A stretch of DNA of 64,000 bases from an uncultured bacterium (GCA_943788175.1 CALSPG010000001.1:64001-128000); one strand, 5' to 3'. Counted from the stretch's first letter, positions 4,249 through 46,053 are shown. Numbers and translations are program-made. The notes: a model not told the origin generated them from the sequence alone.

Positions 4249-5736
4249 TTAGTTTTTTATAGCCCCAGGAACATTTGCTTTAATATATTGGACTGCTTCA
4301 AGGCCTTCATAAATTTTTGCCTTTGTTGGCTTAGTTGGATTTTCTACTGCTAGAAAAATCAACTTTGATTCTTTGTCATTTATAAAATATTGTAAAAGTT
4401 TATCTCCAGAAAGTGTTGTAGCTCCTAAGACCACTTCTAATTCTAATTTGATGTTACCAATACCATTGTATGATCTATATACTATTTCAGAACATGCTTG
4501 TTTTTCGCCACTAGTCAAATCAAAATCAAAATCATAATCATGGCCAAGAAATGAGTAAAGATTTTTGAGGGCTATGCGGATTTCACTATCATTTAAATTT
4601 GGTCTAAATGCGATAATTCTATTTGCATAACCATTTAAATAGGAGTCTAATGTAGATGTTCTTACCCCATCAGAATTTGCCTCAATTATATTATGATTTT
4701 CACCAATGTATTTTTTCTGATTTTCTTTTAGGCGAACTGCGCTTAGCATTGCATTCTTTTTAACGTCTTGAGAGCCGGTAAAAGATAAGGCATGTTTGAA
4801 ATAACCAGGTAAAAAGATATTACTTAGATATCCACTACTATAAGTTAGGATTATATCTCCAGGCTTTAATGCTTTTGTCACATGCTTTTTTTGTCGTCTT
4901 GAAAATTTTATGCCTTCAACAAGTGGCATCCTTACATCTGCCATGATTGTAAATAAAAACTCTTGTATTGCTTTTAGTTGGCTTCCTGCTTCATCAACCA
5001 TCGTGTTTACTGTTTCCTCGATAGTGTTGACCTGCATTATCTCTGCAGCCTCTAAGGGAAGAATAGTATAACTATCTAAGATTAATCTTTTATAATTATC
5101 ATATTCCTTAGCTAAGATTTCGGTCCTAGCTATCAATTCATCTATAAAAGGGAAGTAATCAGTTTTTTTATAAACTTCTTTTCTTCTATTGATTTGCCTT
5201 TTAAAGAATTCATTGGCAATATCAATATTGTTAACATTTTTAGGATTGGTTAGGTTGCTAATTAAGTAATTAAGACCATCTTTTTTTATTTCAGCTCTAG
5301 GGAACTCCTCATTTAATTTATTTATTAGAGGTTGATTACTAGCAGTTTTGAGGACTAATTCAGCGCTATGCTTGTAAAGAGTTAAAGAAGCACAATATCC
5401 AAGAGCAAATGCCTGTGCATTATTTTTCTTAAATTTTGACTTATTAGAAATATCTTTGTAGGCATTTACAATATCTAAAAGAGATTTTGTGCATAATGTA
5501 TATCTAAAGTAGAGTCTCTCAATTTCATCGTACTGGTTATTTGTAAAATATTTTTTGCCATTTTCTACGGAAGGTTTAATTAAAGAAAGCGATGATATTG
5601 TTTGATCTAAAACACTGTCAAATGTTTTTATATGATTGAAGTCATCTTCAGGAACCCAACGTTGAGAATAGTTTTGACCATGAGAAAAGAAAAAAGCAAT
5701 GAGAAAAACTGATTTTCTAAACGGTATTTTGGTCAT
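4249..5736 (-). CDS. YiiX/YebB-like permuted papain-like NlpC/P60 hydrolase with a long N-terminal helical region
   Basis: LKPGDIIL ... PGYFKHA (His) ... IIEA ... YDFDFD ... CSEIVY (Cys after His, i.e. permuted order). Confidence 0.85.
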   Translation of the reverse strand: MTKIPFRKSVFLIAFFFSHGQNYSQRWVPEDDFNHIKTFDSVLDQTISSLSLIKPSVENGKKYFTNNQYDEIERLYFRYTLCTKSLLDIVNAYKDISNKSKFKKNNAQAFALGYCASLTLYKHSAELVLKTASNQPLINKLNEEFPRAEIKKDGLNYLISNLTNPKNVNNIDIANEFFKRQINRRKEVYKKTDYFPFIDELIARTEILAKEYDNYKRLILDSYTILPLEAAEIMQVNTIEETVNTMVDEAGSQLKAIQEFLFTIMADVRMPLVEGIKFSRRQKKHVTKALKPGDIILTYSSGYLSNIFLPGYFKHALSFTGSQDVKKNAMLSAVRLKENQKKYIGENHNIIEANSDGVRTSTLDSYLNGYANRIIAFRPNLNDSEIRIALKNLYSFLGHDYDFDFDLTSGEKQACSEIVYRSYNGIGNIKLELEVVLGATTLSGDKLLQYFINDKESKLIFLAVENPTKPTKAKIYEGLEAVQYIKANVPGAIKN

Positions 5737-25425: not shown

Positions 25426-27696
25426 ATGATAATAAATACATTTAAATCTATTTTAGTTAGTTTTTCAATTATTCTAATTTTTTCATCTTTGAGTTGTGAC
25501 GATCGTAAAGTGAGTGCTTCAGTCACAGAAGATGGCTTAACACTTGCTTTTATTGAAGCGCAACCTGTAGCAAGTGGCAGCACCGTTGGCGAAGCAGTTG
25601 TTGGGTATGCTGGTGTCTTTTTAATTGTTGAGCTAAGAGACGCTGATGGAGATCCGGTTAAAGGGGGTGTTATCTCTTTTAGTGCAAAGGCTTTAGAAGG
25701 GTCTTCTTATAAGTCTATCGGCAGTTTTGACGTCAATACAGTAACAACTGGATCTGATGGTTCAGCCTTTGTAACGTATAACGTTAGTAGTGGTAGTGGT
25801 GCTGTTGATAATCCGACTACTCCTATTTTTGAAAACGTTGAGATCACAGCTTATTATGGAGAAAATTTAGAAGCGTCAACTAGGTTTGATGTCTATGGAT
25901 CAAAAGACGATATATGGCCTTATACTTTTACAATGACCGCTCCTAATCCTGAAGAAATAACATTAGCATCAGATACTCCATCTGATATCACATGCAGACT
26001 ATTAAATAAGAACGGTACTCCTGTAAGAAACGTGATTGTTCAAATTGATGCTGGTGAAAAAGGATACATAAAAATTGATGATAATGTTGTGGACTCTGAC
26101 ACAACCAATAATAATGGTGAGATAACATTTAGTTTTCACGATTATGGTGAACAAGAAAATATTGGTATTGCTACAGTTAAAGCGTTGTTTCAACACCCTT
26201 CCATTAGTTCCTCAGTTATCGACTCTTCTACTATCTCTATTGTTACTCAGGTAGGCTTAGTTCAAGAATGTACATATGTAGAAATTGCATCATCAGTGCC
26301 TGATAATATTGTTGTTCGGGATGGTGGAGGAATTGAGTCTACTTCAATAAAGGCTAAACTTTTTGATGATAATGAGAACCTTATCGATGAACCTAGATTA
26401 ATTCGCTTCGTTTTGAATCCAATTATGGAAGGTGCATACTTGGAAGAGCCAGGAGTTACAGATACCAGCGTCTTCACAATTAATGGAATTGCAACAGTTT
26501 CTGTTAATAGTGGCACTGTTCCTGGACCAATTAGGGTGGAAGCTAGTGTAGATTGTGATGAAGATGGAGATTATGAGATTAATGCAAATGCAGTACCTGT
26601 AATTATAGCTTCTGGTGCTCCTTACTACATTGAGCCAGAATATGATCCAAATTCAACAGAGCCGATCGGTGGTGGTTTTTATAAAACCCAATGTGCAGCA
26701 ATAGTTTATGATAAATGGTACAACCCCGTTGAAGATTCAACTTACGTTTATTGGTCAATTGACCCTATTGCGCCTGATACTTTAATTGATGCATTTGTCG
26801 AAGGCATTAGCTTCACCGGCAATGAAAATCTAGATGGTGACGCAAACAAAGGTGTGGCTTACAGCGAACTAGTTTACTCAACAGATGCTATTGGAGATTT
26901 TGGTAGAGTAAAAGCAACAACATTTGGTTCAGATGGTCCTGATGAAGATACAATTGCTGATTCTGTTTCTGCTTTGATAAATGAAGATGTTGGAGATGCA
27001 GCATTGTTTTTTCTTCCTGGTGAATTATCGTTGACTGCCAGTGCTACATATCACGACTTCTCTCTTCCTGCTCCAACAGAGGAAGTAGAGATAACAATCA
27101 CAGCAATTTTGATTGATTTTTATGGTAATCCAGTTGTGAATGCGCCAATATCTTTTGTAGGCACAGGCGTTGAAGCCTGGAGGGAACTTGGCTATGAACT
27201 ATATGAGGATGTTGGAATAAATGGCGTTGCAAATACAGGCGAGGACAACGGCTGCTTTAGTTGGCGCGATTATGGTGCTGATGATAGTTCTCAAACCGCT
27301 GATATGGGTACATTTAACGAAGAACACGATGCTTTTGATACTGATGGTGATGGGAAATTCGATGTTCAGGAGGTTTCAGAACCTTTTAGTGATAATGGTG
27401 TTGATCAAGCTCCAAATACGAATGACCTAGGTGAAGGTAATGGAAAATGGGATGGCTATAGCATGATTAACTGCGAACCTATTGTTAGAACCGACCAAGA
27501 TGGGTATGCAAGAATTATAGCTGTTTTTCCCAGGGAACTGTGTATTTGGCAAGCAACAGATGATGAGACTGGTATTTGTACTTTTGAAGATTTTAGTGCC
27601 TCAATCTCTTCTACTTTATTAATCCCGCAGATTACAACAAGTGATCCGCTAGACATACAATTAGTGCGAACACAAACAACAGTGGGGTGTCCATAA
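25426..27696 (+). CDS. Acidic lipoprotein with invasin/intimin-type Ig-like (Big-1) domains
   Basis: Lipobox SLSC; repeated 'L.D..G.PV....I.F ... T...G.A' Big-1 motifs; DTDGDG Ca-binding-like loop; AAGGAG RBS. Confidence 0.7.
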   Translation: MIINTFKSILVSFSIILIFSSLSCDDRKVSASVTEDGLTLAFIEAQPVASGSTVGEAVVGYAGVFLIVELRDADGDPVKGGVISFSAKALEGSSYKSIGSFDVNTVTTGSDGSAFVTYNVSSGSGAVDNPTTPIFENVEITAYYGENLEASTRFDVYGSKDDIWPYTFTMTAPNPEEITLASDTPSDITCRLLNKNGTPVRNVIVQIDAGEKGYIKIDDNVVDSDTTNNNGEITFSFHDYGEQENIGIATVKALFQHPSISSSVIDSSTISIVTQVGLVQECTYVEIASSVPDNIVVRDGGGIESTSIKAKLFDDNENLIDEPRLIRFVLNPIMEGAYLEEPGVTDTSVFTINGIATVSVNSGTVPGPIRVEASVDCDEDGDYEINANAVPVIIASGAPYYIEPEYDPNSTEPIGGGFYKTQCAAIVYDKWYNPVEDSTYVYWSIDPIAPDTLIDAFVEGISFTGNENLDGDANKGVAYSELVYSTDAIGDFGRVKATTFGSDGPDEDTIADSVSALINEDVGDAALFFLPGELSLTASATYHDFSLPAPTEEVEITITAILIDFYGNPVVNAPISFVGTGVEAWRELGYELYEDVGINGVANTGEDNGCFSWRDYGADDSSQTADMGTFNEEHDAFDTDGDGKFDVQEVSEPFSDNGVDQAPNTNDLGEGNGKWDGYSMINCEPIVRTDQDGYARIIAVFPRELCIWQATDDETGICTFEDFSASISSTLLIPQITTSDPLDIQLVRTQTTVGCP

Positions 27697-29417
27697 TGGC
27701 TAGTGATTTTAATCCGCAATTTCAAAAAATTGGTGAAATTTTAATTCATGCCTCAAAAATTGATGAAAGCAAATTAAATAGTGCGTTAGCTGAACAAAAA
27801 AAGACGAATGAAAAATTAGGGCAAGTTTTGATTTCGATGGGGTCTATTGATGAAGATGATTTTATTACAGCTTACTCAATGCAAATGGGATATCGTAAAG
27901 CAGATAATTTTTTGCTTTTAGAAGCGGATCAAGATGCAGTTGGTTTAATACCTGAAGATTTTGCTAGATCTAATTCAGTTTTAGCAGTAAAAAGATCAGA
28001 TAGTGCTGTTACGATAGTGATGGAAGATCCTGAGGATATTGCCACGATAGATTCAGTGAAACGTTTAACTGGCCTAGAGCCCGACATTGTTGTCGCTGGT
28101 TTTGATTTAATTAATAAAGCGATGGATCAACTTTATGGCGAAATTACACAAGCGGGTAAAGTTGAAGAGGCTATACAAGGCATTACTGTTATTTCAGGAG
28201 ATGAAGATTCAGCAGAAGAGGTAGACCTCTCCCCAGAGAATGCTAGCGATGAAGATGCTCCAATAGTAAAGCTAGTTAATTTAATCCTGCAGGAAGCAAT
28301 AAAAGAGCGTGCTACAGATATCCACGTTGAACCGCAAGAGAGCAAAGTAAATGTGAGAATACGTATTGATGGTGTTCTTCAAATTATTATGACTCCACCG
28401 TCAACTTCTCTCAGCGGCTTAGTTACAAGAATAAAAATATTGTCAAAACTTAATATAGCAGAAAAAAGATTACCGCAAGATGGTAGGTTTTCTATCAAGA
28501 CAGCAGCAAAAGATTTAGATGTTCGTGTGTCTATTTTACCTACAGTGCATGGGGAAAAAATTGTAATGAGGTTGCTAGATAAAAGTGGATTTGATTTTAA
28601 TCTTACAACATTGGGTTTTCCTAAAAAGAATCTAAGCATCTTTAAAAAAGTTATTAGTCAACCTTATGGTATGGTCGTTGTATCGGGACCGACAGGTTCT
28701 GGAAAATCAACTTCTTTATACGCTGCACTTAAGCAAATAAAAGATGAAAAAACAAATATTATTACCGTTGAAGATCCTGTTGAATATCAACTTGATGGTA
28801 TTACTCAAGTCCAGATTTTTGAAGATATCGGTCTCACCTTTGGTTCTTCGTTGCGATCAATCTTGCGTCAAGATCCAGATGTATTATTGATTGGTGAGAT
28901 AAGAGATGAAGAGACAGCGGATATTGCTGTTAAGTTTTCTTTAACAGGTCATTTGGTCTTTTCAACTGTTCACGCAAATGATGCTCCAGGTACTTTAACA
29001 AGATTGCTAGATATTGGAATTGCCCCATTTTTGGTAGGATCATGCTTGAACTTAGTTATGGCTCAAAGATTGGTCAGAAAGTTATGTGATAAATGCAAAG
29101 AATCATATGCTCCTACGGCTGATGAACTAGCATTGATTGGATTAGAAACCAAAGATGTAAAAGGAGAGCTTAATAAAGCAAAAGGTTGCGCCGATTGCAG
29201 AAATACTGGCTATCGAGGAAGAACAGCTATCTTCGAAATGATTCCTATGGCAAGAGAATTAAGAAAACTTGTTTTTGATAGTGCAAATGAAGACGAGATA
29301 AGGCAGGCGGCTATTAAAAATGGCATGGTAACACTTCGAGACGCTGGTAATGAAAGAGTCCTAGATGGCACTACTAGTGTTGAAGAAGTGTTGAGGTCAA
29401 CTGTCGAGGATTTATAG
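27696..29417 (+). CDS. pilB: Type IV pilus extension ATPase PilB (GspE/PulE family) with an MshEN-like N-terminus
   Basis: EKRLPQDG, Walker A GPTGSGKS, LRQDPDVLLIGEIRD, tetracysteine CDKC/CADC; TAATG overlap gives the start at 27696. Confidence 0.95.
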   Translation: MASDFNPQFQKIGEILIHASKIDESKLNSALAEQKKTNEKLGQVLISMGSIDEDDFITAYSMQMGYRKADNFLLLEADQDAVGLIPEDFARSNSVLAVKRSDSAVTIVMEDPEDIATIDSVKRLTGLEPDIVVAGFDLINKAMDQLYGEITQAGKVEEAIQGITVISGDEDSAEEVDLSPENASDEDAPIVKLVNLILQEAIKERATDIHVEPQESKVNVRIRIDGVLQIIMTPPSTSLSGLVTRIKILSKLNIAEKRLPQDGRFSIKTAAKDLDVRVSILPTVHGEKIVMRLLDKSGFDFNLTTLGFPKKNLSIFKKVISQPYGMVVVSGPTGSGKSTSLYAALKQIKDEKTNIITVEDPVEYQLDGITQVQIFEDIGLTFGSSLRSILRQDPDVLLIGEIRDEETADIAVKFSLTGHLVFSTVHANDAPGTLTRLLDIGIAPFLVGSCLNLVMAQRLVRKLCDKCKESYAPTADELALIGLETKDVKGELNKAKGCADCRNTGYRGRTAIFEMIPMARELRKLVFDSANEDEIRQAAIKNGMVTLRDAGNERVLDGTTSVEEVLRSTVEDL

Positions 29418-30667
29418 TGAGCGTATTTCATTACTTAGTTAAAAATGATGAAGGCAGTAGGTCAGAGGGTGATATACGTGCTGAATCAATGGATTTAGCT
29501 ATCCAAAAGCTCACGTCGAATGGGCAGATAGTTATTACCTTAAAAGAGGTTGATACTACTTTTGATTTCTTAGGGCCATTTCTTGATGAAATCAATCTGA
29601 CTTTTGAAAGACTAAAAAATAGAGTACCTTTAGCAAATATTGTATTTTTTACCAGGCAGCTGGCAACAATGTTTAGTGCGGGATTAACTCTTAGAAAGGG
29701 CTATAAGCGCTCTTTCTGTTGAAGAGAAGCACAAAAAGTTTAAAAAAATTCTTACTGAGGTAGGCTCAAGTATCCGTAAAGGATTAAATCTTTCTGAATC
29801 ATTATCTCGTCACCCAGGTGTTTTTAATAATCTTTTTGTTGCGATGACAAAAGCTGGTGAAGTAAGTGGAAATTTAAATGAGATCTTAGATCAACTGGCT
29901 TCATACCTTGAAAATCTTGATGATACACGAAGAAAAGTAAAAGGGGCAATGACGTATCCTATATTTATGGTCATTTTTCTAGGGTGCATGGTATTAGCAA
30001 TGTTTATTTGGATTATTCCAAAGTTTTCTGAAGTCTATTCTCAGCTTGGGGCTTCACTTCCTGGAGCGACTAAGAAAGATGATGGATGCTAGTGCCTGGG
30101 TAACTGAAAATTTAGGTTTTATGGTTTTTCAACTTTATTGTTGTGTTTTTGGTGGTCTTCTTAATTTCAAAAACCCAGCGAGGAGGATTCATTATTGACA
30201 CTGTTAAATTGAAAATCCCAGTGTTTGGAAGTCTACTTAATCAATCTATATTAAATAAATTTTGTAAAACCTTTGGAATCTTGATTGGTGCTGGTGTCCC
30301 TGTGCTTGAAGCAATGGCGCTATTAAAAAAAGTAGTTGGAAACAAAGTCTACGAAAAAGCAGTTCAAGATGCGTCTAATTACATTAGAGATGGTTACAAT
30401 ATTTCAACAGCGCTACGAAGAACTGAAGTTTTCCCGTCTATCTTGCTTCAACTTGTCTCTACAGGTGAAGAAACTGGGGAAATTGATGATTTACTTGATA
30501 GAGCAGCTGATTATTATCATAAACAGGTTAACGCTCTAGTAGAGCGTATGACTACTCTGATTGAGCCTCTTCTAATATTGATGGTGGGCGCTGTTATTGC
30601 TCTTATGGTTGTTCTTACTTATCTACCAGTCTTTCATCTTGGATCTGCATTGCAGTCGGGTTTGTAA
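29417..30667 (+). CDS. pilC: Type IV pilus platform protein PilC (GspF family), broken by three +1 indels as assembled
   Basis: FTRQLATMFSAGL | AGEVSGNL..L..L, AMTYP | GEETGEID..L...IEPLLI..YLPVF; frame changes near 29691, 30072 and 30126. Confidence 0.9.
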
Positions 30668-30672
30668 TAAAA

Positions 30673-31320
30673 ATGTTAAATGTGTTTTTGATATTATGCA
30701 TCAGTTATATTTACGCAAGATCATTAAAATTTTCTATTAATTGGTTGAATGTTGATGGATTCTCTATTAGAAATAACGATTTCAAAATGGAGGCATTTTG
30801 CGCATTATCATGGTTGTGGGGTTCTTATGCATTGCCACCAATGGAAGCTGTGATTTTTAGCTTGCTTGCAGGGTTGCTGTTTGCAATTAGTTGGGTTGAT
30901 TTTTACACCTTTCAAATTCCACTTCTTTTCATTCTCGTCGGTTCTCTGATTGTTTTATATGGTGTTGTAAATGGGGTATTTCATTATAAGACTGCATTTT
31001 ATGGTGTTGTCGTTGGCTCCATTATACCCTTAGTATTGATTTGGCTTATTTTTCTTATTACGAAAAGACAAGGGATGGGTTATGGTGATATTCAACTTGG
31101 TTTTGTTTTAGGTATTTGGTTAGGTCCAATGAGAATGGCACTTACACTTTTTGGCGCATCATTATTAAGTTTAATTGTTTGGGTAATTATAGCTGTTATA
31201 AAAGGTTTTGATAGGAATAGAGCATTGCCGTTTGCGCCATATCTAGCAATTGCTTCTATTGCTATCTATATTGGAAGTTTCTATTTTCCTAACATATTTC
31301 ATTATTTAATATTTAATTAG
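30673..31320 (+). CDS. pilD: Prepilin peptidase (A24), peptidase domain only
   Basis: Catalytic Asp motifs WVDFYT and GMGYGDIQL, LPFAPYL; no CxxC pairs. Confidence 0.88.
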   Translation: MLNVFLILCISYIYARSLKFSINWLNVDGFSIRNNDFKMEAFCALSWLWGSYALPPMEAVIFSLLAGLLFAISWVDFYTFQIPLLFILVGSLIVLYGVVNGVFHYKTAFYGVVVGSIIPLVLIWLIFLITKRQGMGYGDIQLGFVLGIWLGPMRMALTLFGASLLSLIVWVIIAVIKGFDRNRALPFAPYLAIASIAIYIGSFYFPNIFHYLIFN

Positions 31321-31332
31321 AGAGATTTTAAA

Positions 31333-34300
31333 ATGAAAATCAAATTTTTATCGTTTATATTTATTTTTTACACTGCTTTTGGTGCTGAAAATCTTACATC
31401 TATTTCAAAAGATCCAGGGTTTAAGTATCAAGTTAAAAACAATGGTAATGGTCTCATTACATACACCACGCCAGAATATGTTATTGATTCTAAAAATGAT
31501 ATTAATGGTAAAATTCTTAAAAAGCCTGTTTTTTCAAATTCTAGCCAAACTTCTGAGCCTGGAATGCCCGATCTGCCATCAAGCACAACATTTATCGCAG
31601 TTGACCCAAATAAAAATTACTCCATAGAAGTAACATATGGCTCTTCACGCTTTATTAATGACGTTGATATAGTCGCAAAAGGTTCTTGGGATAATAACGT
31701 AAATGAAGACGTAGTCTCAGAACCAAATTATTCTGATATTGATAATTATTATCCAGCTGACATCGCTTTGATATCTGAACCTATGGCTATGAGAGAATTA
31801 TCATTGCTTACATTAACAGTCTCGCCATTTCGGTATCATCCTGATCAAAAAATCTTAGAAGAATTTATTGATATTGAAATAGAATTAGTTGAGAACGGTA
31901 GTCGTGAATCTGCTCTGTTTCACCCTTCAAAACGATCAAGAGCTTTTGAACCATTATATAAATCAATGATTGCAAATTATTCTTCTTTAAACCGTGAAAG
32001 TATTCCTTACCAGAGACCTTCTATTTTGTATGTTCTTCCGAATAATATAGGAAACCTTTTAGGGACAGTTGAAGTACTTATGGATTGGAAAAAAAGAATG
32101 GGATATGAAGTAAACTATATATCTAGTTCTAATATTGTGAATAACTCTAATAACCTTAAAGATTATATAGAGACTGCTTACGAAGGTTGGGATAATCCCC
32201 CAGAATATGTTACTATCGTAGGCGATGCTGAGGGTAGCTACGATATACCAACGCATTTTGAAAATTGGAGTGGTTACAATGGAGAAGGTGACCATCCTTA
32301 TGCCACACTAGTTGGAAATGATTTATTCCCGGAATTATTTGTTGGTAGGCTTTCTTTTGATAGTCAAAGCCATTTACAGACCATTATAAGTAAAACTGTT
32401 AATTATGAATCAAACCCCTATATGGGTGAAAATTGGTTTAAAAGAGCATGTTTAGTTGGAGACCCTTCTACTTCAGGCGTTTCATGCATTATTACAAATA
32501 ATAATATAAAAGAAGTTCTTCAAAATTATGGATATGAAGATATAAGAACTGTTTTTTCTGGGGATTTTCCTAGTCAGATGACTAGTAATCTTAATGATGG
32601 AGTAGGGTTTTTTAATTACAGAGGTTTTTATGGCGTAAGTGGCTATACGAATGATGACCCTGGCTTGTCAAATAATGGTTTTATGCTTCCAATTGCCACA
32701 GTCATTACCTGTGGAACGGGTTCTTTTGGTACTGAAGAATCATTGTCCGAGTCGTTTTTAAGAGCTGGAACTGCTTCAAACCCAAGAGCTGCAGTTGCTT
32801 GTATCGGTACTGCAACACTGGGTACGCATACGATGTTTAATAATATGGTTGATATGGGTTTTTATCATGGCGCTATTGTTGAAAATATAAACTCAGTTGG
32901 TGGTGCTCTTATGGCCGGTAAACTCTGGCTTTCTAGAGCATACCCTACGAACCCTAATCAATATGTTTCTACTTTTACTCATTGGAACAGCCTTATGGGT
33001 GATGCCTCTCTTCAAATGTGGACAGAATATCCTGAAATGCTAAATGTATCGCATTTGTATTCTCTGACAAAAGGTACCAATTTCATCGATTTTTCGCTTA
33101 CTAATAGTGGTGGCAACCCTGTGCAAGATGCTTGGGTAACAATCTACAAAGAAGGCTCTGTTTTAGAGTCTGGTTATAGTGATTCCAATGGATCAATTCG
33201 ATTAATGATTCCAATTGTTCAGGAAGGCGAGATTCTTGTAACAGTTACTAAAAAAAATCATTACCCATATCAAAGCTCTTTTCAAATCTACAATCCAGGT
33301 GCCAGTGTGAATATTTTTGGTGATAACATATCCCTAATTGAAAATGGAACTGGTTCTTCAAATGGGAATGGAGATGGAGAAATAAATTCTGGCGAAGTAG
33401 TAGACCTGATTATTCCTGTATCGAACTATGGTAATGCAAATGCTTCTCAAATTAGTGGTACTCTTTCTTCAGAAAATTCTAATGTTACAATTACAAATGA
33501 TACATTTTTTTACGGAGACCTAACATCAGGAGATGTTGTTAGTAACGATTCATCTCCGTTTACATTTAGCGTAAATAACGATGTGCATGATAATTCAAAT
33601 GTTAAGCTGTTGCTTACACTTACCAATAGTAATGGTTATTTGTCTACAGGCTATTTGGAGTTTTCTGTCTCAGGCAAAAATATTTATGCATCGAATATTG
33701 ATGTTTCTGGCAGTAGTCAAGATGTCTTGTCAGCCGGAGAAATATCAAATGTTCATATTCAATTACATAATATTGGCTCCACTATAGCACAAAATATTAC
33801 AGGTCAAATAACCTCATCATCTGGTGCAATAGAGATTATTGATAATTCCGCTACTTGGTCATCAATCAATCCAGGTGCCTATAGCTCTAGCTCAAACAGT
33901 GGGGATTCATTTATTATTAGTGCTCAAGAAGATGTTATTCCTGGGACCATCGCAAATTTAATTGTATCTCTAAGTTCGGATGATGGATACTCAGCCTCTT
34001 CAGTTATTACGATCCAAATTGGTATTCCGTCAGAAAATGATCCATTGGGACCAGATGAATATGGTTATTATATATATGATAGCGGAGATATTGACTATCT
34101 TATTGCACCATCTTATGATTGGATTGAGATAGATGATAGGTATGATGGAAATGGTACGTATTTAAACTCCCTAAGTGATAATGGCGATAATGGAGATGAT
34201 GTCCAGACAGTTTAGCCTACCTTTTAATTTTAGATTTTATGGCCAAGAATATGAAAGTCTAAGTATTTGTTCAAATGGATGGATATCTTTTGGCGCAACT

Positions 34301-34939
34301 GATTTAAGCTCATTTAGAAATTATCCTCTGCCAGGAGCTGGGGGACCAGGAAAGATGGTCGCTGTTTTTTGGGATGATTTAAAATTAACAAATTCAGGAA
34401 GAGTTTATACTTGGTATGACGAAATTAATAAATTGTTTATAGTTCAATGGTCAAGAGTTCGTACTTTCCAAAATAATACTTCAGAAACATTTCAAGTGAT
34501 TTTAAAAGATCCTATGTATCACACTACTCCTACTGGTGATGGCGAAATAGTGATACAATATTTAGATTTCAATAATGATACTAATGGAAGCTATAGTTGG
34601 AGTCAAATTCATGGTAACTATTGCACTGTAGGTATTGAAGATCATACAATGAAACGAGGATTACAGTATACTTTTAATAATTCATATGCTGATGCAGCTA
34701 TGCCTTTATCAGATGGAACTGCGATTTTAATTACCACCCGTGGAAGTGAACTGCGTTTAGATGGTGATTTAAATACTGATGGAATGATTGATGTGAATGA
34801 TCTTCTTATTCTTATAGATCATATCGTTGTAGACCAAACAAATTTTAACCCATACCTAGCAGATATAAATTCTGATGGAATGGTGAATATTTTGGATATG
34901 GTAAGGCTTATTCAAATTGTAATGGGTTACGATCAGTAA
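31333..34939 (+). CDS. C25 (gingipain-like) peptidase with propeptide, Ig domains, a nidogen-like domain and a C-terminal type I dockerin; one +1 indel near 34212
   Basis: GMPDLP propeptide; IVGDA, DHPY, VGRLS, NYRGF, ITCGTG, LMGDAS; removing one T at 34211-34213 fuses the two ORFs (VQTV-SLPFNF); dockerin GDLNTDGMIDVNDL / ADINSDGMVNILDM. Confidence 0.85.
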
Positions 34940-34960
34940 TTTTAACTGAGTCTTGCGGGT

Positions 34961-36145
34961 ATGCTAATTTCGCCCTTATTGATTCTTGGTTTTCTAGCTA
35001 CCCTTTTAATCATTGCCGGCCTACTAGAATTTAAATACCATCAAACAAGCTTATCCGGTATTCCAATTAGAATTCATGTAAACGGTACCAGAGGAAAATC
35101 AAGCGTCACTCGTCTTATAGCTGCAGGGTTAAGAGCTGGAGGAAAACGTACATTTGCCAAAACAACAGGCACGGCACCTAGAGTAATTGATTCTAAAGGA
35201 ATCGATAGAATTATCCATAGATTAAGAAAACCCTCTATTGGTGAGCAAGTAAGATTGCTTAAATATTTTTCTGATGAAAAACCTGATGTGGTTGTAATGG
35301 AATGTATGGCAGTTCAACCTCAATATCAGTGGATCTCTGAACATCAGATGGTAAAATCAGATATTGGGGTTATTACGAATGCAAGGCCAGATCACTTAGA
35401 TGAAATGGGGCCAACAGAAGTGGATGTTGTAAAATCATTATGTAATTCAATTCCTGTAGGTGGTGTTCTTGTAACGGCTGAAAAAAAACACAAAAAAATC
35501 ATTAAAAAAGTTACGTATGACAATAACTCTGATTTTATTTTATCAGATGAAAATTCAATTTCAAATGAGTATATAAACAATTTTAAATACATCGAGCACC
35601 CTCAAAACATAGCAATCGCATTGGATGTGTGTGAAAAAATTAGGAATTGATAGAGACACAGCAATAGGAGGTATGCACCAAGTTCAACCAGATTTAGGTG
35701 CTTTGATTGTTTGGAAATTAATTGGTCAAAAAGGTTCATTGCAATTCGTAAATGGAATGGCTGCAAATGACCCCGTATCGACATTGCAAATATGGAAATT
35801 TGTAATTGATAGGTATCCTACCAAAAGTGCAACGGCGGTATTTTTTAATTCAAGAGATGACCGCCCTATACGTACAAAACAAATGTTAGAACTCACGTTT
35901 GAAGAAATTCGACCTGAATATTTAATTGTCAGAGGTGATAAGATCGAAGCAAAAATAAACAAGCTTAAACACCACTCGCCTGAAACTATTGTTATAAATA
36001 TTCTCTATTGACGAGAAGCCTGATGTTGTTAGTAAAGCGATATTAAATTGCCTGATGATTCAATTATTTACGCAATTGGTAACCAAGTAGGAAGTTGGGC
36101 AAGAGATATTAGAAGATTTAGCCAGGAATAGAAGTAATTGGTTGA
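34961..36145 (+). CDS. capB: Poly-gamma-glutamate synthase CapB/PgsB (Mur/folylpolyglutamate ligase family), several indels as assembled
   Basis: IRIHVNGTRGKSSVTRLIAAGL, KTTGT, ECMAVQP, ITNARPDHLDEMGPT, FVNGMAANDP, NSRDDRP.RT, then YAIGNQVG in a later frame; shifts near 35636, 36000, 36047 and 36093; end approximate. Confidence 0.92.
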
Positions 36146-36582
36146 AATTAGCATTGGGTTAGGAATTATTCTAAGCTTAGTATTGTCAGAAGCTCTAGGC
36201 GTCACAGCTGGTGGGATTATTGTGCCAGGTTATATAGCTTTATTTTTACATCAACCAGTTCAGGATATTCTCAACTTTTTTTGTAGCTATTTTGGTTTTA
36301 GGAATAATAAAAATTTTAAGCAAAATTATGTTCTTATATGGAAAAAGGAGAATTGTACTTGCACTGATCCTTGGTTTTTTCTTCGGCTATTTATCTAGAA
36401 CGTTGTATGTTGATTCGGAAAGCATAAAAAGTGTTGCTGTTATAGGTAATATTATACCTGGCCTTATTGCAAATTGGATGGATAGACAAGGTGTGACGCG
36501 CACAATTTCAGTTGTTATTCTTACAGCTGTCATTGTAAAGCTGATGGTGATGATATTATTTGGAGGAGCAATCTTTGAATAA
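36138..36582 (+). CDS. capC: Poly-gamma-glutamate biosynthesis membrane protein CapC/PgsC, one +1 indel near 36262
   Basis: GVTAGGIIVPGYIAL ... LYGKRR ... VIGNIIPGLIANWMDRQG. Confidence 0.92.
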
Positions 36583-37729
36583 TTACAAACAAAATCCATT
36601 CATTCCTGCAATTCAAAAAACATCCACTCTCTTAATTTTGTCTCTTATAGCAATGGTTGCCTTTATAATTTCATTAAAGAGTACCATCATAGAGGTATCA
36701 TCTTCATACGATACGAAAGTTAAAGCTGCTTCTCTAATGAAAAAATCAATGAATGTATTGAAGTCTAATAGAATGGTTTCTAGTGTTTTTATTGATGATG
36801 AAAATGACCCGAATGAAACCGGATTAGTTGGAAGTCCATTCAGTCTGATAACTACTGACGAAGGTGATTTAGACGCGAAACTCACAACATTAGATCCAAA
36901 CTTTTCTGCAGGTATGGTCGAACTGATGGTTCAAGTCGGCATAGAAAAAAATGACACTGTAGCGGTCCTTTTAACTGGGTCTATGCCAGGTGGAAATATT
37001 GCAGTCCTTACTGCATTGAAAGCACTTGGCGCTTATTCTGTTGTCATTACATCTGTTGGAGCATCACAATGGGGTGCAAATCATATTGATTTTACTTGGC
37101 TTGATATGGAAAAAATACTTTATGAAGAAAATTTAATTCTAAATAGAAGTATAGCTGCATCCATTGGCGGACGAAATGATATGGGTAGATTACTTAGTCC
37201 TGAAGGAAGAAATATTATTAATAAAAATATTTCAAAGCATGGGTTACCAATAATTAAAAAAAGTAGATTGGCTGATAACATAAGTCATAGAATGAAACTT
37301 TTTAATAATATCGCGAAAATAGATAATTATAGTGCAATGATAAATGTCGGAGGTGGTGTAGCAAGCTTGGGTACAAGTTTTAATTCAAAATTACTTCCTG
37401 CAGGCATTGTAAATAGATCTGATGTCCAAAGTATTTCATTGCAGGACGGTGGAATAGAAGGTGTTTTATCAAAATTTTCAAAAAACGACATTCCGGTTTT
37501 ACATGTATTAAACATTAAATCATTAACAGAAAAACTTGGAATGCCTTTTGCTCCAATACCTGTTCCTGAGGTTGGTGTGGGTACTTTATATGCTGTTGAA
37601 AAATATAACGTATTTGTTGCCTTCGTCTGCTTAATCGTCTTATGTAGTGCAGTTTTTGTAGTTGGTTATCAAAGTAAAAAAGAAATAAAGGAGCATCTCA
37701 TAAATCATGAGCCAGATAGTTTACTATAA
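36575..37729 (+). CDS. pgsW: Poly-gamma-glutamate system protein (PgsW-type)
   Basis: DPNETGLVG...ITTDEGDLDAKLTTLDPNF, GSMPGGNIA, SVGASQWGAN, INVGGG; N- and C-terminal TM; follows capBC; start uncertain (36560 or 36575). Confidence 0.85.
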   Translation: MNNYKQNPFIPAIQKTSTLLILSLIAMVAFIISLKSTIIEVSSSYDTKVKAASLMKKSMNVLKSNRMVSSVFIDDENDPNETGLVGSPFSLITTDEGDLDAKLTTLDPNFSAGMVELMVQVGIEKNDTVAVLLTGSMPGGNIAVLTALKALGAYSVVITSVGASQWGANHIDFTWLDMEKILYEENLILNRSIAASIGGRNDMGRLLSPEGRNIINKNISKHGLPIIKKSRLADNISHRMKLFNNIAKIDNYSAMINVGGGVASLGTSFNSKLLPAGIVNRSDVQSISLQDGGIEGVLSKFSKNDIPVLHVLNIKSLTEKLGMPFAPIPVPEVGVGTLYAVEKYNVFVAFVCLIVLCSAVFVVGYQSKKEIKEHLINHEPDSLL

Positions 37730-38585
37730 GTTAATTTTTATCTCGTTGTTCTTTATTTGTGAATCTACTGCGTTTGCAAAATTATTGAGACCATCAAAGA
37801 ATCGAGACCAGAAAGAAATTCTTGTCATAAACTCAAAAAGAAGAGTTTATTATCCAATTAAACAAGAAGGTCTTGTTTATCAGATTAATGGCCCTGTAAG
37901 GACGGAATTTATTAGTAGGTATCCAGTACTAAAGAAAAAGAAAAGGAGTCACAGTTTTAACTATGTTATTGTACTTAACCAAAAAGACACCATTAACGTC
38001 AATCATCGATACAAAGTGCAATCTCCTGTGCGCTCTGTTCAGCACCCAAAACATAGATACACTTTTTCTGGAAACTATTTTATTAACCTGCCTAAAGGAA
38101 ACCATACGGTAGAAATTCTTCAAAATAAAGATTTAAAGTACCCTGTTCTTCTTCGGCTATTATCGAAAGAATTTGAAACCCCAAAGAAAGATCAAGAAAT
38201 ATTAGTTCCTATGGTTCATAAGAATAATGTGGATATTGAATTAGATGGAAAAAATCTAAAATATTTTGAATGTAGTAAAAATATACCTTTGCAGATAGAA
38301 GCATACGGTCCAAAGATCTTAAGAATTATTAGTAGATTAGAGTTTACAGAAAAAATGGGAGCACAGGAATCTTATAGAATTCACGTAAAAAGTGAAAAAA
38401 AAGTGGTTGGAACTTATTTTTTTAATACTGAAAGGTCTGGATCTTCAAAAATTAAAAATCGGTCAGATAAAGTACCTGGCAAATGGCGAAGTTGTGAAAT
38501 TAAAGTACCAAAAGGTAATCATAATTTTTCTATTGAAGTTTTTGATGAGGGAAAAACAGCTCTTACGCGTTTTATGTTATACTAA
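37707..38585 (+). CDS. Exported basic protein with two tandem homologous beta domains, function unknown
   Basis: Signal peptide ending AFA; internal repeat YY..GP...FISR...PKGNH.VEI / YF..GP...IISR...PKGNH.FSI; Lys/Arg-rich. Confidence 0.75.
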   Translation: MSQIVYYKLIFISLFFICESTAFAKLLRPSKNRDQKEILVINSKRRVYYPIKQEGLVYQINGPVRTEFISRYPVLKKKKRSHSFNYVIVLNQKDTINVNHRYKVQSPVRSVQHPKHRYTFSGNYFINLPKGNHTVEILQNKDLKYPVLLRLLSKEFETPKKDQEILVPMVHKNNVDIELDGKNLKYFECSKNIPLQIEAYGPKILRIISRLEFTEKMGAQESYRIHVKSEKKVVGTYFFNTERSGSSKIKNRSDKVPGKWRSCEIKVPKGNHNFSIEVFDEGKTALTRFMLY

Positions 38586-39613
38586 TGCGATTTTTAATTA
38601 TACTTAAAATACTATATATTTTTTGCTCTGCTAACGGCTCAACGCCTATCGACTTAAGTTTGAGTTATCAAGGTGGGTACGATGATAATGTAATGAGATT
38701 TTCTAAAAAAGAAATTTCAGATGCTTCGTCTAATATTAAATACCTTGGTGGTTCAAAAACTTTTGATAGTTATATTAATAAAATTCAATTTGGTTTTAAT
38801 AAAACATTATATGCAAAAAATAACAAAGAGGTGCTTTATAATTCATCTGTGGCTTTGTCCGATTATGTCCATAATTCGAACAAAGACTATTGGTCAGGTA
38901 ACATATCTGTAAAATATAAATGGGGGTCATACCGAAATCTAAAATACTCTTTAAGACATCTTAATAGTTACTATTTACGTCATTATATTGATAGAGACTT
39001 ATCCTTAAATGAATTGAAATCATGCAGCTTCACAGATAACGATCAAAATGTGTCGATTTCAAATAGAATCAATAAGAGAAATTGGTATATCATTAGTTTT
39101 GGTTTTCTTCAAAGGTATTATGATAAACCATTCACAGAATTTGACTTAAATATCTATTATGCTAAAGTAAAGATAAATAAAAAAATAAAAAGATATGGTA
39201 CAATTTCTTTTCAAGTAAATCGAGGTTTCGCTGATAATGTGACTTTTACAAAAACTGGTATTTCAAGTGATTTTGACCGTTCATATGAATCTATTGAATG
39301 GTATATGCCTATAAAAATAAACAGCCCGGTACCTATGATTGAGAATTTTGGTTTTTCATTTAGACAAGAACTAAGATATTATAATGCAGAAGCTGTAAAT
39401 GATGTTTTACATGCAGGTAGAGATCACGTAGATAATAAATTGGACTTTTGGTTCAATAAGAGTCTAAAAGAAAATCTTGATGTCGTATTTAGTGTTCGTT
39501 TTCGATCAAGAGAAACAGGGTCATCATATAGCTGGGTTCGTGATCTAAAGAGTTTTAAACAAATGCAGTTATGGTGTAAAATTAAATGGGGTTTTTCCTA
39601 TGATAATTATTAA
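38585..39613 (+). CDS. Putative outer-membrane beta-barrel protein
   Basis: Signal peptide, early 'GGYDDNV' motif, alternating amphipathic strands rich in Y/F/W and K/R, aromatic C-terminus. Confidence 0.65.
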   Translation: MRFLIILKILYIFCSANGSTPIDLSLSYQGGYDDNVMRFSKKEISDASSNIKYLGGSKTFDSYINKIQFGFNKTLYAKNNKEVLYNSSVALSDYVHNSNKDYWSGNISVKYKWGSYRNLKYSLRHLNSYYLRHYIDRDLSLNELKSCSFTDNDQNVSISNRINKRNWYIISFGFLQRYYDKPFTEFDLNIYYAKVKINKKIKRYGTISFQVNRGFADNVTFTKTGISSDFDRSYESIEWYMPIKINSPVPMIENFGFSFRQELRYYNAEAVNDVLHAGRDHVDNKLDFWFNKSLKENLDVVFSVRFRSRETGSSYSWVRDLKSFKQMQLWCKIKWGFSYDNY

Positions 39614-40652
39614 AAAAGTTAATTTTTTATTAATAGTTCTATTGTTGTTCTCATGCATGGAACCAAATGATGAGGGTCTTTGGTCTGTTGATCAAATAAG
39701 TGTTTTTAATACCCAAGGATTCTGTAGAGGCGTTTCTGTCGAAGAAAATATAGCCTATATTGCCTCTGGGCAAGCTGGGGTCCAAGTTTGGAATTTAGAA
39801 ACTGGAGACGCATTGCATGAATATTTGGGTTATTCACAAGATGGCTCTTACATTGAATTTGATGATATATCAATTGTAAAAAGAGATGGAGCTAATAATT
39901 TAATATTCGTTACTGAATCAAATAAAAAAGTAAAAGTTTTCTTTTTTGATGATAGTAGTGATTTTGTTTATAGGAACGAAATCATGAGTGATCGCACAAA
40001 AGACTATGTTTCATTTCCAACTGCTGGAGGTGGTTTTACTATGTATGTTGCTGATAATGATGATGGTCTCAAATGGGGAACATATAGGTCAGATACTACA
40101 ACCATATTCAATCTTGAGATAATAAATTGGATGCCAACTGCTGGTGGAGAAATTTCTACGGATGGAAAGCCGTTAGGCATCGATAGTAATGGTGAAAATT
40201 TAGTAGCTATGGCGGTAGATCAGTTAGGTGTAGAATTTTACAATCTTATTTTTAACCAATCTATTGAAAATGCTGGAGGGGAACCTGTTTTTCTTTCCAG
40301 GTTTGACTTAGGTGGTAATGCAGAACAAGTAAAATTAGTCGATAACGGAGCATATATATCAGTAGATGATTTCGGAGCATATTTTATAGAAAAAGAGTCA
40401 ATTTTATCTGGTGATGGTGAAGCTATTCATTTTGCAGAAGGCCTCACGGTTGATCACATTTCTATCAAAGATGATATAGCAGTATTAAGCATTGGATCTA
40501 AAGGTATTGCTCTTTATGATATTTCTGATATCCATAATCCTAAAGCAAAAGGAATTTTTGATGTTGGTTACACATACAAAACTGAATTCTGGGATGAATA
40601 CATTTTAATTTGTACTAGATCAGGTTTAAAAACTGCAAAAATAAATATTTAA
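39600..40652 (+). CDS. Lipoprotein with an LVIVD-like beta-propeller
   Basis: Lipobox LFSC; 'IAYIASGQAGVQVWN', 'AVLSIGSKGIALYDISDIHNP' blades. Confidence 0.72.
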   Translation: MIIIKKVNFLLIVLLLFSCMEPNDEGLWSVDQISVFNTQGFCRGVSVEENIAYIASGQAGVQVWNLETGDALHEYLGYSQDGSYIEFDDISIVKRDGANNLIFVTESNKKVKVFFFDDSSDFVYRNEIMSDRTKDYVSFPTAGGGFTMYVADNDDGLKWGTYRSDTTTIFNLEIINWMPTAGGEISTDGKPLGIDSNGENLVAMAVDQLGVEFYNLIFNQSIENAGGEPVFLSRFDLGGNAEQVKLVDNGAYISVDDFGAYFIEKESILSGDGEAIHFAEGLTVDHISIKDDIAVLSIGSKGIALYDISDIHNPKAKGIFDVGYTYKTEFWDEYILICTRSGLKTAKINI

Positions 40653-43725: not shown

Positions 43726-46053
43726 ATGAATGTATTTAAGAGTATAATTCTGTACATATTTTTATGGGGATTTGTTTCTTCGCAGTCCCTAGATGAAAGA
43801 TATCACTCTTATCCTGAAATTTTATCATTAATTGATTCATTGTCGAACGTCGAAGAATACCAAAGCATACTTTTAGTTGATACTATTGGATATTCTTCTT
43901 TAGAAAATATTCCAATTGTTGCTGTTAAAATATCAGATAATGTTAACATTAAAGAAGATGAGCCTAGAGTATTGTTTGTCGGTCAGGTTCATGCTGAAGA
44001 AGTATTAGGAATTGAAGTAATCCTAAGTTTAATGAATGATCTTTTGGACCCAAGACCTGAAGAATATAATCACATGAATATTTTAAAATCCTATTTAGAA
44101 GTTTGGTTGATTCCATCTGCAAATCCGGATGGTCTTGGAGTGGTGCATGAAGGTCTTGATTTAACATTTAGAAAAAATAAGACTGATTTTTCCCCAGGAG
44201 GTCTTGACCCTAATGGTATATTCGATTTTGAACCATCGATTGGTAATGATGTAGATGGTGTCGATTTGAATAGAAATTTTGGATTTAATTGGACATTTGG
44301 TGATACTTTTTTAGTTTTTGACGAGACAGATTATGGTTCTCATTATGATTATTATCGAGGGCCTGCACCATTTTCTGAGAGCGAGGCAGTCGCAATTCGT
44401 GACTTAGCACTTCAGCATGATTTTGTTTTTTCAATTGTATGGCATAGTTCTAGGTCAGGTAGATTATCTGAGAAGGTTTTTACATCCTGGAATTGGGAGG
44501 GTGCTAAGCCTTCACCAGATCTAGATTTGATGAAAGGAGTTGCAGACACGTTCTCTGGTTTGATGGAGAAAGAGGATGGTACGGGTAGTTATCTATCAGT
44601 CTTAAGTGGATCAAGGAATGGTAAACTCCATGATTGGTTTTATAGAGAAACCGGTTGTATTCAGTATTTAGTGGAGTGTGGAACTTCAAACCTACAGCCA
44701 GATAGCTTATTAATTGAAAGTACAGTTAGTAGAACGAAACCTGCGATGATTTATCTAATGGATAGAACCATTGGTTACAATACGGATGCTGGGCAAGCTA
44801 CTGGTATCATTTATGATGCAAATACAAATGCCCCTATTCATGGGGTAGAAATTAAAATCGAAGAACACTCAGGTTCTGTATTAAAACCGAGGTTAACAAA
44901 TGAATTTGGGCGTTACAGACGTATTTTAGATGCAGGAACGTATCATCTAAATATCTCAAAAAAAGGATATCTTCCTATTCGGCAATCAATTACAACAAAT
45001 AACAGTGGCATCACTGAAGCAGATTTTTCCCTAATCCAGGCGCCTTTACATTCAGTAAGAATAGATTTAGATAATGGACTGACTGGGAATCTACCATACG
45101 AAGTAAAGTGTCTTGTAATTAGTGAGAACGATACAGATACTCTATTGTTAGATGATTCATACCTTGACTTAATATTGCCTGAGGGTCTTTATAAATTGGT
45201 TATTAATCCATCTATTGGGACACCTTGGGAAAAGAAGTTGTATATTGATCAGAATTATAATTTTGTTGTACCAATGGGTACTGCAACTAGTTATGATCTT
45301 AGCCAGAATTGGAATGAGTGGTCAGCCGATCAAGATAGTTGGCACATCGTAAATAATAATTTATTATCACAGTCAAATATCTATTATGACAATAACGATT
45401 CGCTTCAAATATTACAAAAAATAAGTTCTCCACTTTATGATATCTCTGGAAAAAATAGAGTTACATTTAAAATAGTTCACCAATATGAGACAGAATGGGA
45501 TCATGATTCAGTAGGTGTTTCAATTTATGATGCTAACGAAACTTTATTATATAGAGATGGTTGGAGTGGCCATAAGTGGGGTAATTATGTTTCTAATTAC
45601 TTTAGTATTACTAATAATCAAGGGTATTATGACTCATTGAGATTGGTGTTATGGTTTAAAACTGACCAAACAGTTAATTATCGTGGATGGGATATAATTA
45701 GTTTCACAATGTATGCATTGGATGATGCATTTTTGTCAGTTGAAGAAATTTCATCTAATACTCTGCCTCAGATTAATTTTAATTTTCAAGGTGTTTTCCC
45801 CAACCCCTCGTTTGGGAAAATGAGTTTAGATGTCCGATCTTGGCAAGGTGGTTCTGCGAAGGTAAAAGTGTATAATATATTAGGTCAACAATTGTATGAA
45901 AGAAAAACTGAGGTTTTAAGAAAAGGTAGTTTCTTTCTTAATTTAGACTTTAGAGATTTTAACTATGCTCCAGTAAGTTCTGGAATGTTCTTTGTTGAAA
46001 TTGAATCAAATAATCAGAAAGTAATTCGAAAATGCATCATATTAAAAAATTAG
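43726..46053 (+). CDS. M14 zinc carboxypeptidase with a transthyretin-like (CarboxypepD_reg) domain and CTD
   Basis: HAEE (HxxE), FRKN, GVDLNRNF, WHS, DWFY...VECG catalytic Glu; VFPNP CTD. Confidence 0.9.
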   Translation: MNVFKSIILYIFLWGFVSSQSLDERYHSYPEILSLIDSLSNVEEYQSILLVDTIGYSSLENIPIVAVKISDNVNIKEDEPRVLFVGQVHAEEVLGIEVILSLMNDLLDPRPEEYNHMNILKSYLEVWLIPSANPDGLGVVHEGLDLTFRKNKTDFSPGGLDPNGIFDFEPSIGNDVDGVDLNRNFGFNWTFGDTFLVFDETDYGSHYDYYRGPAPFSESEAVAIRDLALQHDFVFSIVWHSSRSGRLSEKVFTSWNWEGAKPSPDLDLMKGVADTFSGLMEKEDGTGSYLSVLSGSRNGKLHDWFYRETGCIQYLVECGTSNLQPDSLLIESTVSRTKPAMIYLMDRTIGYNTDAGQATGIIYDANTNAPIHGVEIKIEEHSGSVLKPRLTNEFGRYRRILDAGTYHLNISKKGYLPIRQSITTNNSGITEADFSLIQAPLHSVRIDLDNGLTGNLPYEVKCLVISENDTDTLLLDDSYLDLILPEGLYKLVINPSIGTPWEKKLYIDQNYNFVVPMGTATSYDLSQNWNEWSADQDSWHIVNNNLLSQSNIYYDNNDSLQILQKISSPLYDISGKNRVTFKIVHQYETEWDHDSVGVSIYDANETLLYRDGWSGHKWGNYVSNYFSITNNQGYYDSLRLVLWFKTDQTVNYRGWDIISFTMYALDDAFLSVEEISSNTLPQINFNFQGVFPNPSFGKMSLDVRSWQGGSAKVKVYNILGQQLYERKTEVLRKGSFFLNLDFRDFNYAPVSSGMFFVEIESNNQKVIRKCIILKN

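Follow-up and report, generated by a model that had tools for sequence, protein, structure and literature searches.

A candidate module for poly-γ-glutamate synthesis and delivery across the outer membrane in Fidelibacterota and other diderm bacteria

To our knowledge, the export of poly-γ-glutamate (PGA) has been studied only in single-membrane Bacillus, and in diderms this large polyanion would also have to pass the outer membrane (OM). Here, we analyse a 64,000-nucleotide (nt) stretch of DNA from an uncultured bacterium (GCA_943788175.1 CALSPG010000001.1:64001-128000), referred to below as the window, which holds pgsB, pgsC and pgsW followed on the same strand by genes for a strongly basic exported protein, an OM β-barrel and a propeller lipoprotein (Table 1), the last three being named after their start positions (37707, 38585 and 39600). 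Judging by the names attached to homologues, the host is a marine member of the Fidelibacterota (Marinimicrobia/SAR406). We conclude that these genes, together with a conserved upstream gene for a C25-like (gingipain-like) protein, on balance probably form an envelope-spanning module that makes PGA and delivers it across the diderm OM. The case is built on what the genes are, on the folds and charge of their products, on their linkage and on a natural fusion, whereas the transport steps, the topology of PgsW and the accessory roles are inferred. An earlier note on this DNA had already proposed a PGA secretion apparatus (PgsW, a cationic periplasmic guide, then a cationic porin) encoded by the same six genes, all of which lie where it placed them, while the C25-like gene, which is part of the module, had been passed over.

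The route that we propose would start at the inner membrane, where PgsB (an ATP-dependent amide ligase) and PgsC would polymerise glutamate and where PgsW, with a large and presumably periplasmic domain, would take the place of the missing PgsA/CapA. The cationic 37707 protein, with its two jelly-roll domains, would bind the polyanion in the periplasm and dock on the periplasmic face of the 14-stranded 38585 barrel, whose Arg/Lys-rich inward residues would line the exit channel, with the 39600 propeller lipoprotein as a putative OM accessory. At the surface, the C25-like protein, secreted in Bacteroidales by the type IX secretion system (T9SS), and an M14 carboxypeptidase (a possible polymer-trimming enzyme) may process or attach the polymer. 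A bolder version, advanced tentatively and as a possibility rather than an expectation, is that this is the missing OM exit for PGA in two-membrane bacteria. PgsW would be joined in it by a cationic jelly-roll adaptor that docks on, and in some cases is fused to, a cationic channel of 14 strands, by a propeller lipoprotein and by a C25-like enzyme at the surface, which has a non-canonical active site and would cut or attach the polymer. The parts of this exit would be unrelated to known secretion systems, and it would be ancestral to much of the Fibrobacteres-Chlorobi-Bacteroidetes (FCB) group.

Table 1. Genes of the proposed module and its neighbours, in window coordinates (T9SS, type IX secretion system)
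Feature	Coordinates	Strand	Basis
C25 (gingipain-like) family protein with propeptide, ~1200 aa	31333..34939	+	Peptidase_C25 E 3e-45, Propeptide_C25
pgsB, Mur-ligase type poly-γ-glutamate synthase	34961..36145 (end approximate)	+	TIGR04012
pgsC	36138..36582	+	TIGR04011, PF14102 on two open reading frames
pgsW, 'poly-gamma-glutamate system protein'	36560..37729	+	TIGR04332
Exported, strongly basic protein with two jelly-roll (carbohydrate-binding-module-like) domains	37707..38585	+	AlphaFold2, Foldseek, VIA, charge
14-stranded OM β-barrel	38585..39613	+	AlphaFold2, VIA
Acidic β-propeller lipoprotein	39600..40652	+	Lipobox Cys19, Tako8 profile match
Acidic T9SS cargo protein, 1005 aa	40678..43695	+	T9SS type A sorting domain
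M14 zinc carboxypeptidase with T9SS tail	43726..46053	+	Peptidase_M14 E 2e-31, Por_Secre_tail

Three envelope proteins encoded downstream of pgsW

Central to the argument is 38585, for which AlphaFold2 (AF2), run on a 27-sequence alignment, returned a confident OM β-barrel (predicted local distance difference test, pLDDT, 87.3; predicted template-modelling score, pTM, 0.81), the fold that the earlier note had predicted and on which it had made its proposal depend. The model consists of a signal helix and 14 strands (as assigned by DSSP) with a short helical insert after strand 1, and the barrel begins at residue 22, directly after the signal peptide. The N-terminal YDDNV-type motif picked out from the sequence is borne out by conservation, since G31, Y32, D33 and N35 of G31-Y32-D33-(D)-N35-V are invariant in 27/27 orthologues. 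When inward-facing residues are assigned by the alternation of hydrophobicity along the DSSP strands, a heuristic rather than electrostatics on coordinates, 23 Lys/Arg face inwards versus 10 Asp/Glu (net +13), and the inward-facing net charge, at +2 to +13, is positive in all 27 orthologues. Two arginines, R132 and R264, do not vary, and two others, R307 and R309, are present in 26 of the 27. By sequence, 38585 matched nothing in the PDB at E up to 10, and Pfam gave no match in the 27 alignment members nor in ten distant relatives.

The nearest structures are not those that had been anticipated. Both Foldseek and a full-library VIA comparison placed CymA of Klebsiella oxytoca first (Z 23.9, root mean square deviation (rmsd) 3.5, 287 residues aligned) and OmpG of E. 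coli second (Z 21.0, rmsd 3.4, 244 aligned), followed by the 14-stranded barrels of Bacteroidota β-barrel assembly machinery (BAM) complexes and FadL (Z 16-17). The polymer porins AlgE, PgaA, BcsC and PelB have 16-18 strands, which is what had been expected of 38585 along with a likeness to AlgE/PgaA; the model has 14, like CymA and OmpG, which are monomeric channels. These two differ from 38585 in sequence (7-8% identity, no sequence-level match) and in setting, being sugar uptake channels while 38585 sits in a polymer synthase operon. It could be argued from such folds that 38585 imports glutamate, peptides or PGA fragments to feed the synthase, with nearby peptidases supplying the substrate, an explanation that also agrees with a basic lumen (by the same heuristic) suited to anionic solutes and with the C25 and M14 peptidase genes that flank the module. 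We nevertheless regard it as very unlikely, in that neither the strict adjacency to pgsBCW across phyla nor the fusion to a polymer-binding-like domain, both described below, would be expected of a general nutrient channel.

The 37707 protein is, as the earlier note had it, exported and strongly basic, with a signal peptide, a net charge of +25 and an isoelectric point (pI) of 9.95 (top 3% of the genome's 1607 long open reading frames, ORFs). Its orthologues are basic in 27 cases out of 27 (pI 8.69-10.0), and the exported proteins encoded next to it have acidic values (pI 4.3-4.7). In its AF2 model (pLDDT 85.5), there are two β-sandwich (jelly-roll) domains, which Foldseek matched to a tandem of carbohydrate-binding modules (CBM51/CBM22, E 3e-7) and VIA to CBM35/36/51 and a BcsB domain (Z 8-9, with 8.1 for the BcsB carbohydrate-binding domain). 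Its description as a repeat protein thus holds at the level of the fold, which the two domains share, and not much further, a PKGNH motif (E 0.011) being all that they have in common in sequence. No Pfam family passed the cut-off, with weak MtxA_IG-like matches in 11 of the 27 alignment members, and a profile search of PDB sequences gave nothing useful. The idea of a cationic guide fits with the basic orthologues, with the CBM-like and BcsB-like domains and with one jelly-roll-barrel fusion. In a locus from another class of the phylum (L056, genome G046), the jelly-roll ORF is only ~160 amino acids (aa) long (5068-5553 in that locus), which suggests that a single-domain version exists.

As for 39600, its reading as a propeller lipoprotein has gained support, the lipobox Cys19 being invariant in 23/23 sequences and the profile matching the designed eight-bladed propeller Tako8 (E 2e-16 over 7 stretches). 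This protein is acidic (pI 4.3), and its gene is kept directly after that of the barrel, which outside the phylum is the case in 78 of 80 loci, the two exceptions being cut by locus ends. Slam and its substrate lipoproteins likewise have a 14-stranded barrel gene directly before a lipoprotein gene, and 38585 might therefore be a Slam-like translocon carrying 39600 to the surface, the three envelope proteins retaining or organising PGA without forming a conduit. An Atlas feature search points the same way by listing a cluster with PF04575 (SlipAM) in 19% of its members (score 0.96, a measure of feature similarity only). However, PF04575 itself was found in 0/27 members of the barrel alignment at E up to 1, the N-terminal periplasmic tetratricopeptide repeat (TPR) domain of Slam has no counterpart in a barrel that starts directly after its signal peptide, and both the cationic jelly-roll protein and its fusion to the barrel would be left unexplained, all of which makes a Slam-like role unlikely. 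A co-fold of 37707 and 39600 with the barrel reached 0.18 where the mark was 0.32, a result that counts neither for nor against.

Conserved linkage and a jelly-roll-barrel fusion

None of the three envelope proteins belongs to a named Pfam or NCBIfam family, all database names that we met being 'hypothetical protein', and among the module genes NCBIfam names PgsB, PgsC and PgsW only. Their association with the synthase is nonetheless tight. A barrel query gave a match in 29 of 41 relatives, which represent 16 of the order's families, and in 25 of 26 order-level loci the genes for the C25-like protein, PgsB, PgsC, PgsW, 37707 and 38585 follow each other in this order, the 26th locus ending at a contig end. 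A tblastn query with 39600 matched 23 of the 26, and in the remaining three (L046, L049 and L050) there is a gene-sized gap, which we treat as divergence and not absence. Throughout the phylum, evenly sampled with 301 genomes, the barrel profile was found in 117 and TIGR04332 (PgsW) in 125, of which 114 have both; the barrel occurs alone in three genomes and PgsW alone in 11, and 173 have neither of them. Ten further loci, representing other families and classes of the phylum, each have all six genes.

The same picture extends to other phyla. An exhaustive HMMER search of 1.84 billion representatives yielded 611 barrel relatives at E 1e-3, some of the distant ones being named as proteins of Krumholzibacteria or Bacteroidota metagenome-assembled genomes (MAGs). 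A profile of 15 distant relatives then led to 196 confirmed sites in species-representative genomes, the best 80 of which were examined; these come from Bacteroidales, Lentimicrobiaceae, Rikenellaceae, Marinifilum, Chitinophagales, Sphingobacteriia, Ignavibacteria, a Chlorobiota MAG and one MAG labelled Clostridia. In 66 of the 80, all five partners (pgsB, pgsC, pgsW and the genes for the jelly-roll and propeller proteins) lie within 6.5 kb on the strand of the barrel gene, and the other 14 are all cut by contig or locus ends. Two loci, in a Bacteroidales chromosome MAG (L107) and a Marinifilum MAG (L147), have a permuted order, in which the C25-like gene comes before those for the barrel and the propeller lipoprotein and these are followed by pgsB-pgsC-pgsW and the gene for the jelly-roll protein, so that the genes of the module stay together even where they are rearranged. 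The co-occurrence of 37707 and 38585 homologues with pgsB-pgsC-pgsW, the other point on which the earlier proposal had been made to depend, is therefore seen phylum-wide as well as in Bacteroidota and Ignavibacteria.

A physical link between two of the proteins comes from a 498-aa metagenomic protein (P0190), in which hhalign matches residues 33-152 to the second jelly-roll domain (probability 97%, E 1e-10) and residues 160-496 match the barrel profile (E 5e-33). By these profile matches, P0190 naturally combines a single jelly-roll domain and the barrel in one chain. The N-terminus of an even-stranded OM barrel is periplasmic, and the fusion would therefore put the jelly-roll domain at the periplasmic mouth of the barrel. 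With the jelly-roll profile, the 497-aa P0253 of Krumholzibacteria gave a weak signal (hhalign probability 47%), and no further long, fused barrel relative was found at E 1e-5 in a word-indexed library, which is weak evidence.

Synthase genes and a cluster of frameshifts in the assembly

PgsB, PgsC and PgsW were matched to NCBIfam equivalog/subfamily models, with the complication that pgsB and pgsC are broken in the window. The two PgsB fragments score 292.8 bits (model 1-221) and 90.9 bits (218-339) against TIGR04012 (cut-off 222.7), and an intact PgsB of 393 aa from the same genus scores 417 bits over 1-379 of 380. The splitting of pgsC explains why its fragments (49.3 and 65.9 bits) each remain under the 96.45 cut-off of TIGR04011, for which an intact same-genus PgsC (147 aa) gives 123.3 bits over 1-131 of 132. 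PgsW, encoded by a gene that adjoins and overlaps pgsC, scores 290.4 bits against TIGR04332 (cut-off 100; model 3-306 of 307). Since PgsB and PgsC match at the equivalog level, the polymer is most likely PGA. PgsW has hydrophobic segments near both ends with ~300 aa between them, a middle part that is presumably periplasmic, and it showed no relative in a profile search of PDB sequences or in a Pfam scan of alignment members.

The Bacillus PgsBCA(E)/CapBCA(E)D systems share PgsB and PgsC at this same level. They differ in that the module is without PgsA/CapA and without a CapD at the locus, PgsW coming third instead, and in that it adds three genes for OM/periplasmic proteins and the C25-like gene, in a host with two membranes. 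CapA/PGA_cap (PF09587) gave no match anywhere in the 92%-complete genome, in a search that matches 7 of 14 control genomes, and no CapD-type γ-glutamyltranspeptidase was found at the locus, the sole PF01019 match being on another contig (C7), outside the window. The earlier observation that capA and capD are not recognisable in the window therefore stands, and for capA it extends to the whole genome sequence. With respect to the NCBIfam cassette pgsB-pgsC-pgsW (TIGR04332), which is present in the window, what is different is that the three downstream genes and the C25-like gene are outside any named Pfam or NCBIfam module family.

The arrangement of the genes is that of an operon-like unit. 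All long ORFs between 31333 and 49205 are on the + strand, and pgsC through 39600 are chained by coding overlaps of 1-23 nt (also read in a same-genus locus, L025). The overlapping stop and start codons that had been described downstream of pgsW are indeed there, with overlaps of 23 nt (pgsW/37707), 1 nt (37707/38585) and 14 nt (38585/39600). A scan for promoters and terminators was uninformative (86 promoter-like sites versus 91 expected, and no terminator between genes of the module).

What the earlier note had missed is that pgsB and pgsC (its capB and capC) are not single ORFs in the window. We aligned 15 kb of it to two same-genus genomes (92.3% and 90.6% identity) and found seven one-base insertions or deletions (indels), six extra A or T bases and one missing A, all within 34213-36265, and none in the other 13 kb of the alignment. 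The first (+1, at 34213) splits the C25-like gene into ORFs 31333-34215 and 34175-34939. Four others (35639, 35998, 36047 and 36093) leave pgsB as ORFs 34961-35650 and 35625-36011 plus a shifted tail, and the last two (36139, in the start codon region, and 36265) divide pgsC into ORFs 36138-36398 and 36292-36582. In L025, the C25-like gene, pgsB and pgsC are each a single ORF, of 1203, 393 and 147 aa, respectively.

Seven frameshifting indels in 2 kb would lead an annotation to call these three genes pseudogenes, and they might be taken for the sign of a gene cluster decaying in this organism. Public sequencing data say otherwise. A fraction of 0.90 of sampled words is present in 14 DNA runs from five studies, and four public runs from four studies (three DNA libraries and one RNA library) were compared over 33800-36700, where each gave one contig with 1-5 other letters and none of the seven indels; a T>A at 36006 is common to the contigs of all four. 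Because the four near-identical contigs are all free of the seven indels, the frameshifts are private to this assembly, and the natural population has intact genes. Besides, the PgsB fragments are 97.5-97.8% identical to their same-genus orthologue, more than the neighbouring genes are, and the rest of the 15-kb alignment is free of indels. Pseudogene decay is thus rejected as extremely improbable, and the indel cluster looks to be a consensus defect confined to this part of the assembly, or else a private lineage. That the RNA-library contig covers 33800-36700 is a weak hint that the module is expressed.

The C25-like protein, competing readings and flanking genes

In most of the 80 Bacteroidota/Ignavibacteria loci, a gene for a homologue of the C25-like protein immediately precedes pgsB (82 ORF matches), and the copy found in Bacteroidales carries a T9SS type A tail. 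In an alignment with RgpB, Cys460 aligns to the catalytic Cys and is invariant in 61/61 homologues, within an invariant N-Y-R-G...I-x-C-G pattern. At the position of the catalytic His, there is Glu in 44 sequences, Tyr, Phe, Trp or Gln in 17 and His in none; H499, conserved in 58 of the 61, may stand in for it.

Such a protein could itself be what the barrel, the jelly-roll protein and the lipoprotein serve, as a PorV-like shuttle or attachment complex, with PGA acting as an anionic anchor or matrix and crossing the OM elsewhere. This would account for the C25-like gene that immediately precedes pgsB in the majority of loci of three phyla, for the T9SS tail of the Bacteroidales copy and for the several T9SS cargo genes that come after the module in the window, and the resemblance of 38585 to the 14-stranded barrels of Bacteroidota BAM complexes and to FadL-type barrels could be counted in its favour. 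However, the best structures are CymA and OmpG and not FadL-type barrels, NCBIfam does not recognise the C25-like protein as PorU, and translational coupling starts at pgsC, not at the C25 gene, and extends over pgsW to the barrel, which leaves this explanation, in our opinion, with a rather small chance of being right.

Delivery of PGA through the barrel would follow the same logic as the AlgK/AlgE, PgaA, BcsB/BcsC and PelB/PelC systems, in which one operon encodes an inner-membrane synthase, a periplasmic polymer-binding element, a barrel and a lipoprotein. There are structural echoes as well, one 37707 domain resembling the carbohydrate-binding domain of BcsB and 38585 aligning with PgaA, BcsC and PelB. 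The differences are that the exopolysaccharide porins have no sequence relationship to the module proteins, that the module has a barrel of 14 strands and a jelly-roll tandem, not TPRs, as its periplasmic element, and that its polymer would be a polyamide and theirs are polysaccharides. In titles and abstract openings, we found no description of the module, none naming TIGR04332/PgsW in this sense and no link of PGA to Marinimicrobia, SAR406, Ignavibacteria or Lentimicrobium.

Several observations weigh against the export reading. On the side of the proteins, (i) the fold of 38585 is nearer to solute channels (CymA, OmpG, FadL) than to polymer porins, which score lower (Z 14.3 for PgaA, 13.9 for BcsC, 13.5 for PelB and 10.3 for AlgE), (ii) the charge of its lumen comes from the strand-alternation heuristic and not from coordinates, and its whole-protein pI ranges from 5.49 to 9.74 in orthologues, so that the basic barrel of the earlier note applies to inward-facing residues (by that heuristic) and is not universal for the protein, (iii) the jelly-roll matches of 37707 are middling (Z 8-9) and (iv) the C25-like protein is without the canonical catalytic His in 61/61 sequences, which makes any enzymatic activity putative. 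On the side of the genes, (v) in seven Fidelibacterota loci (L061-L065, L068 and L069), a divergent pgsBCW stands without any nearby gene for a jelly-roll, barrel or propeller protein, and five genomes with this divergent type gave no barrel match, so PgsBCW can evidently exist without this barrel.

Both types of pgsBCW cluster are found in genomes G245 and G129. In the four divergent loci that were scanned, pgsBCW is flanked by genes for a γ-glutamyltranspeptidase, an Asp/Glu racemase and a T9SS-tailed FGase-like protein, and these CapD-like, racemase and hydrolase-like partners strengthen the view that the product is PGA. Of the secretion apparatus proposed in the earlier note, then, the barrel fold, the linkage and the fit of a cationic guide have held up, while the number of strands, the likeness to CymA/OmpG and the existence of a barrel-free pgsBCW type do not fit it or had been missed. 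Should delivery through the module prove true, SAR406 bacteria, which are abundant in the ocean, many anaerobic Bacteroidales and Ignavibacteria would coat themselves in PGA or shed it. This would suggest that PGA serves as an envelope or matrix polymer far more widely than has been supposed (in the ocean, sediments and digesters), with a bearing on marine dissolved organic nitrogen and particle stickiness, and the module offers three small proteins as candidates for the passage of a large polyanion through the OM.

The surroundings of the module are also partly conserved. Downstream lie three T9SS cargo genes, for the 1005-aa protein, the M14 carboxypeptidase and a second C25 protein. The first of these trails the module in most Fidelibacterota loci (synteny over L025-L050), with weak tail-level matches only in Bacteroidota loci, and the synteny of the carboxypeptidase gene is kept within the phylum. 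Just upstream of the module (25426-31320) are type IV pilus/type II secretion genes, including those for a PilB/GspE ATPase (27687-29417) and an A24 prepilin peptidase (30673-31320). Between these two, a T2SSF-domain ORF of only 174 aa (30143-30667) comes after an 82-aa ORF, and may be another split gene.

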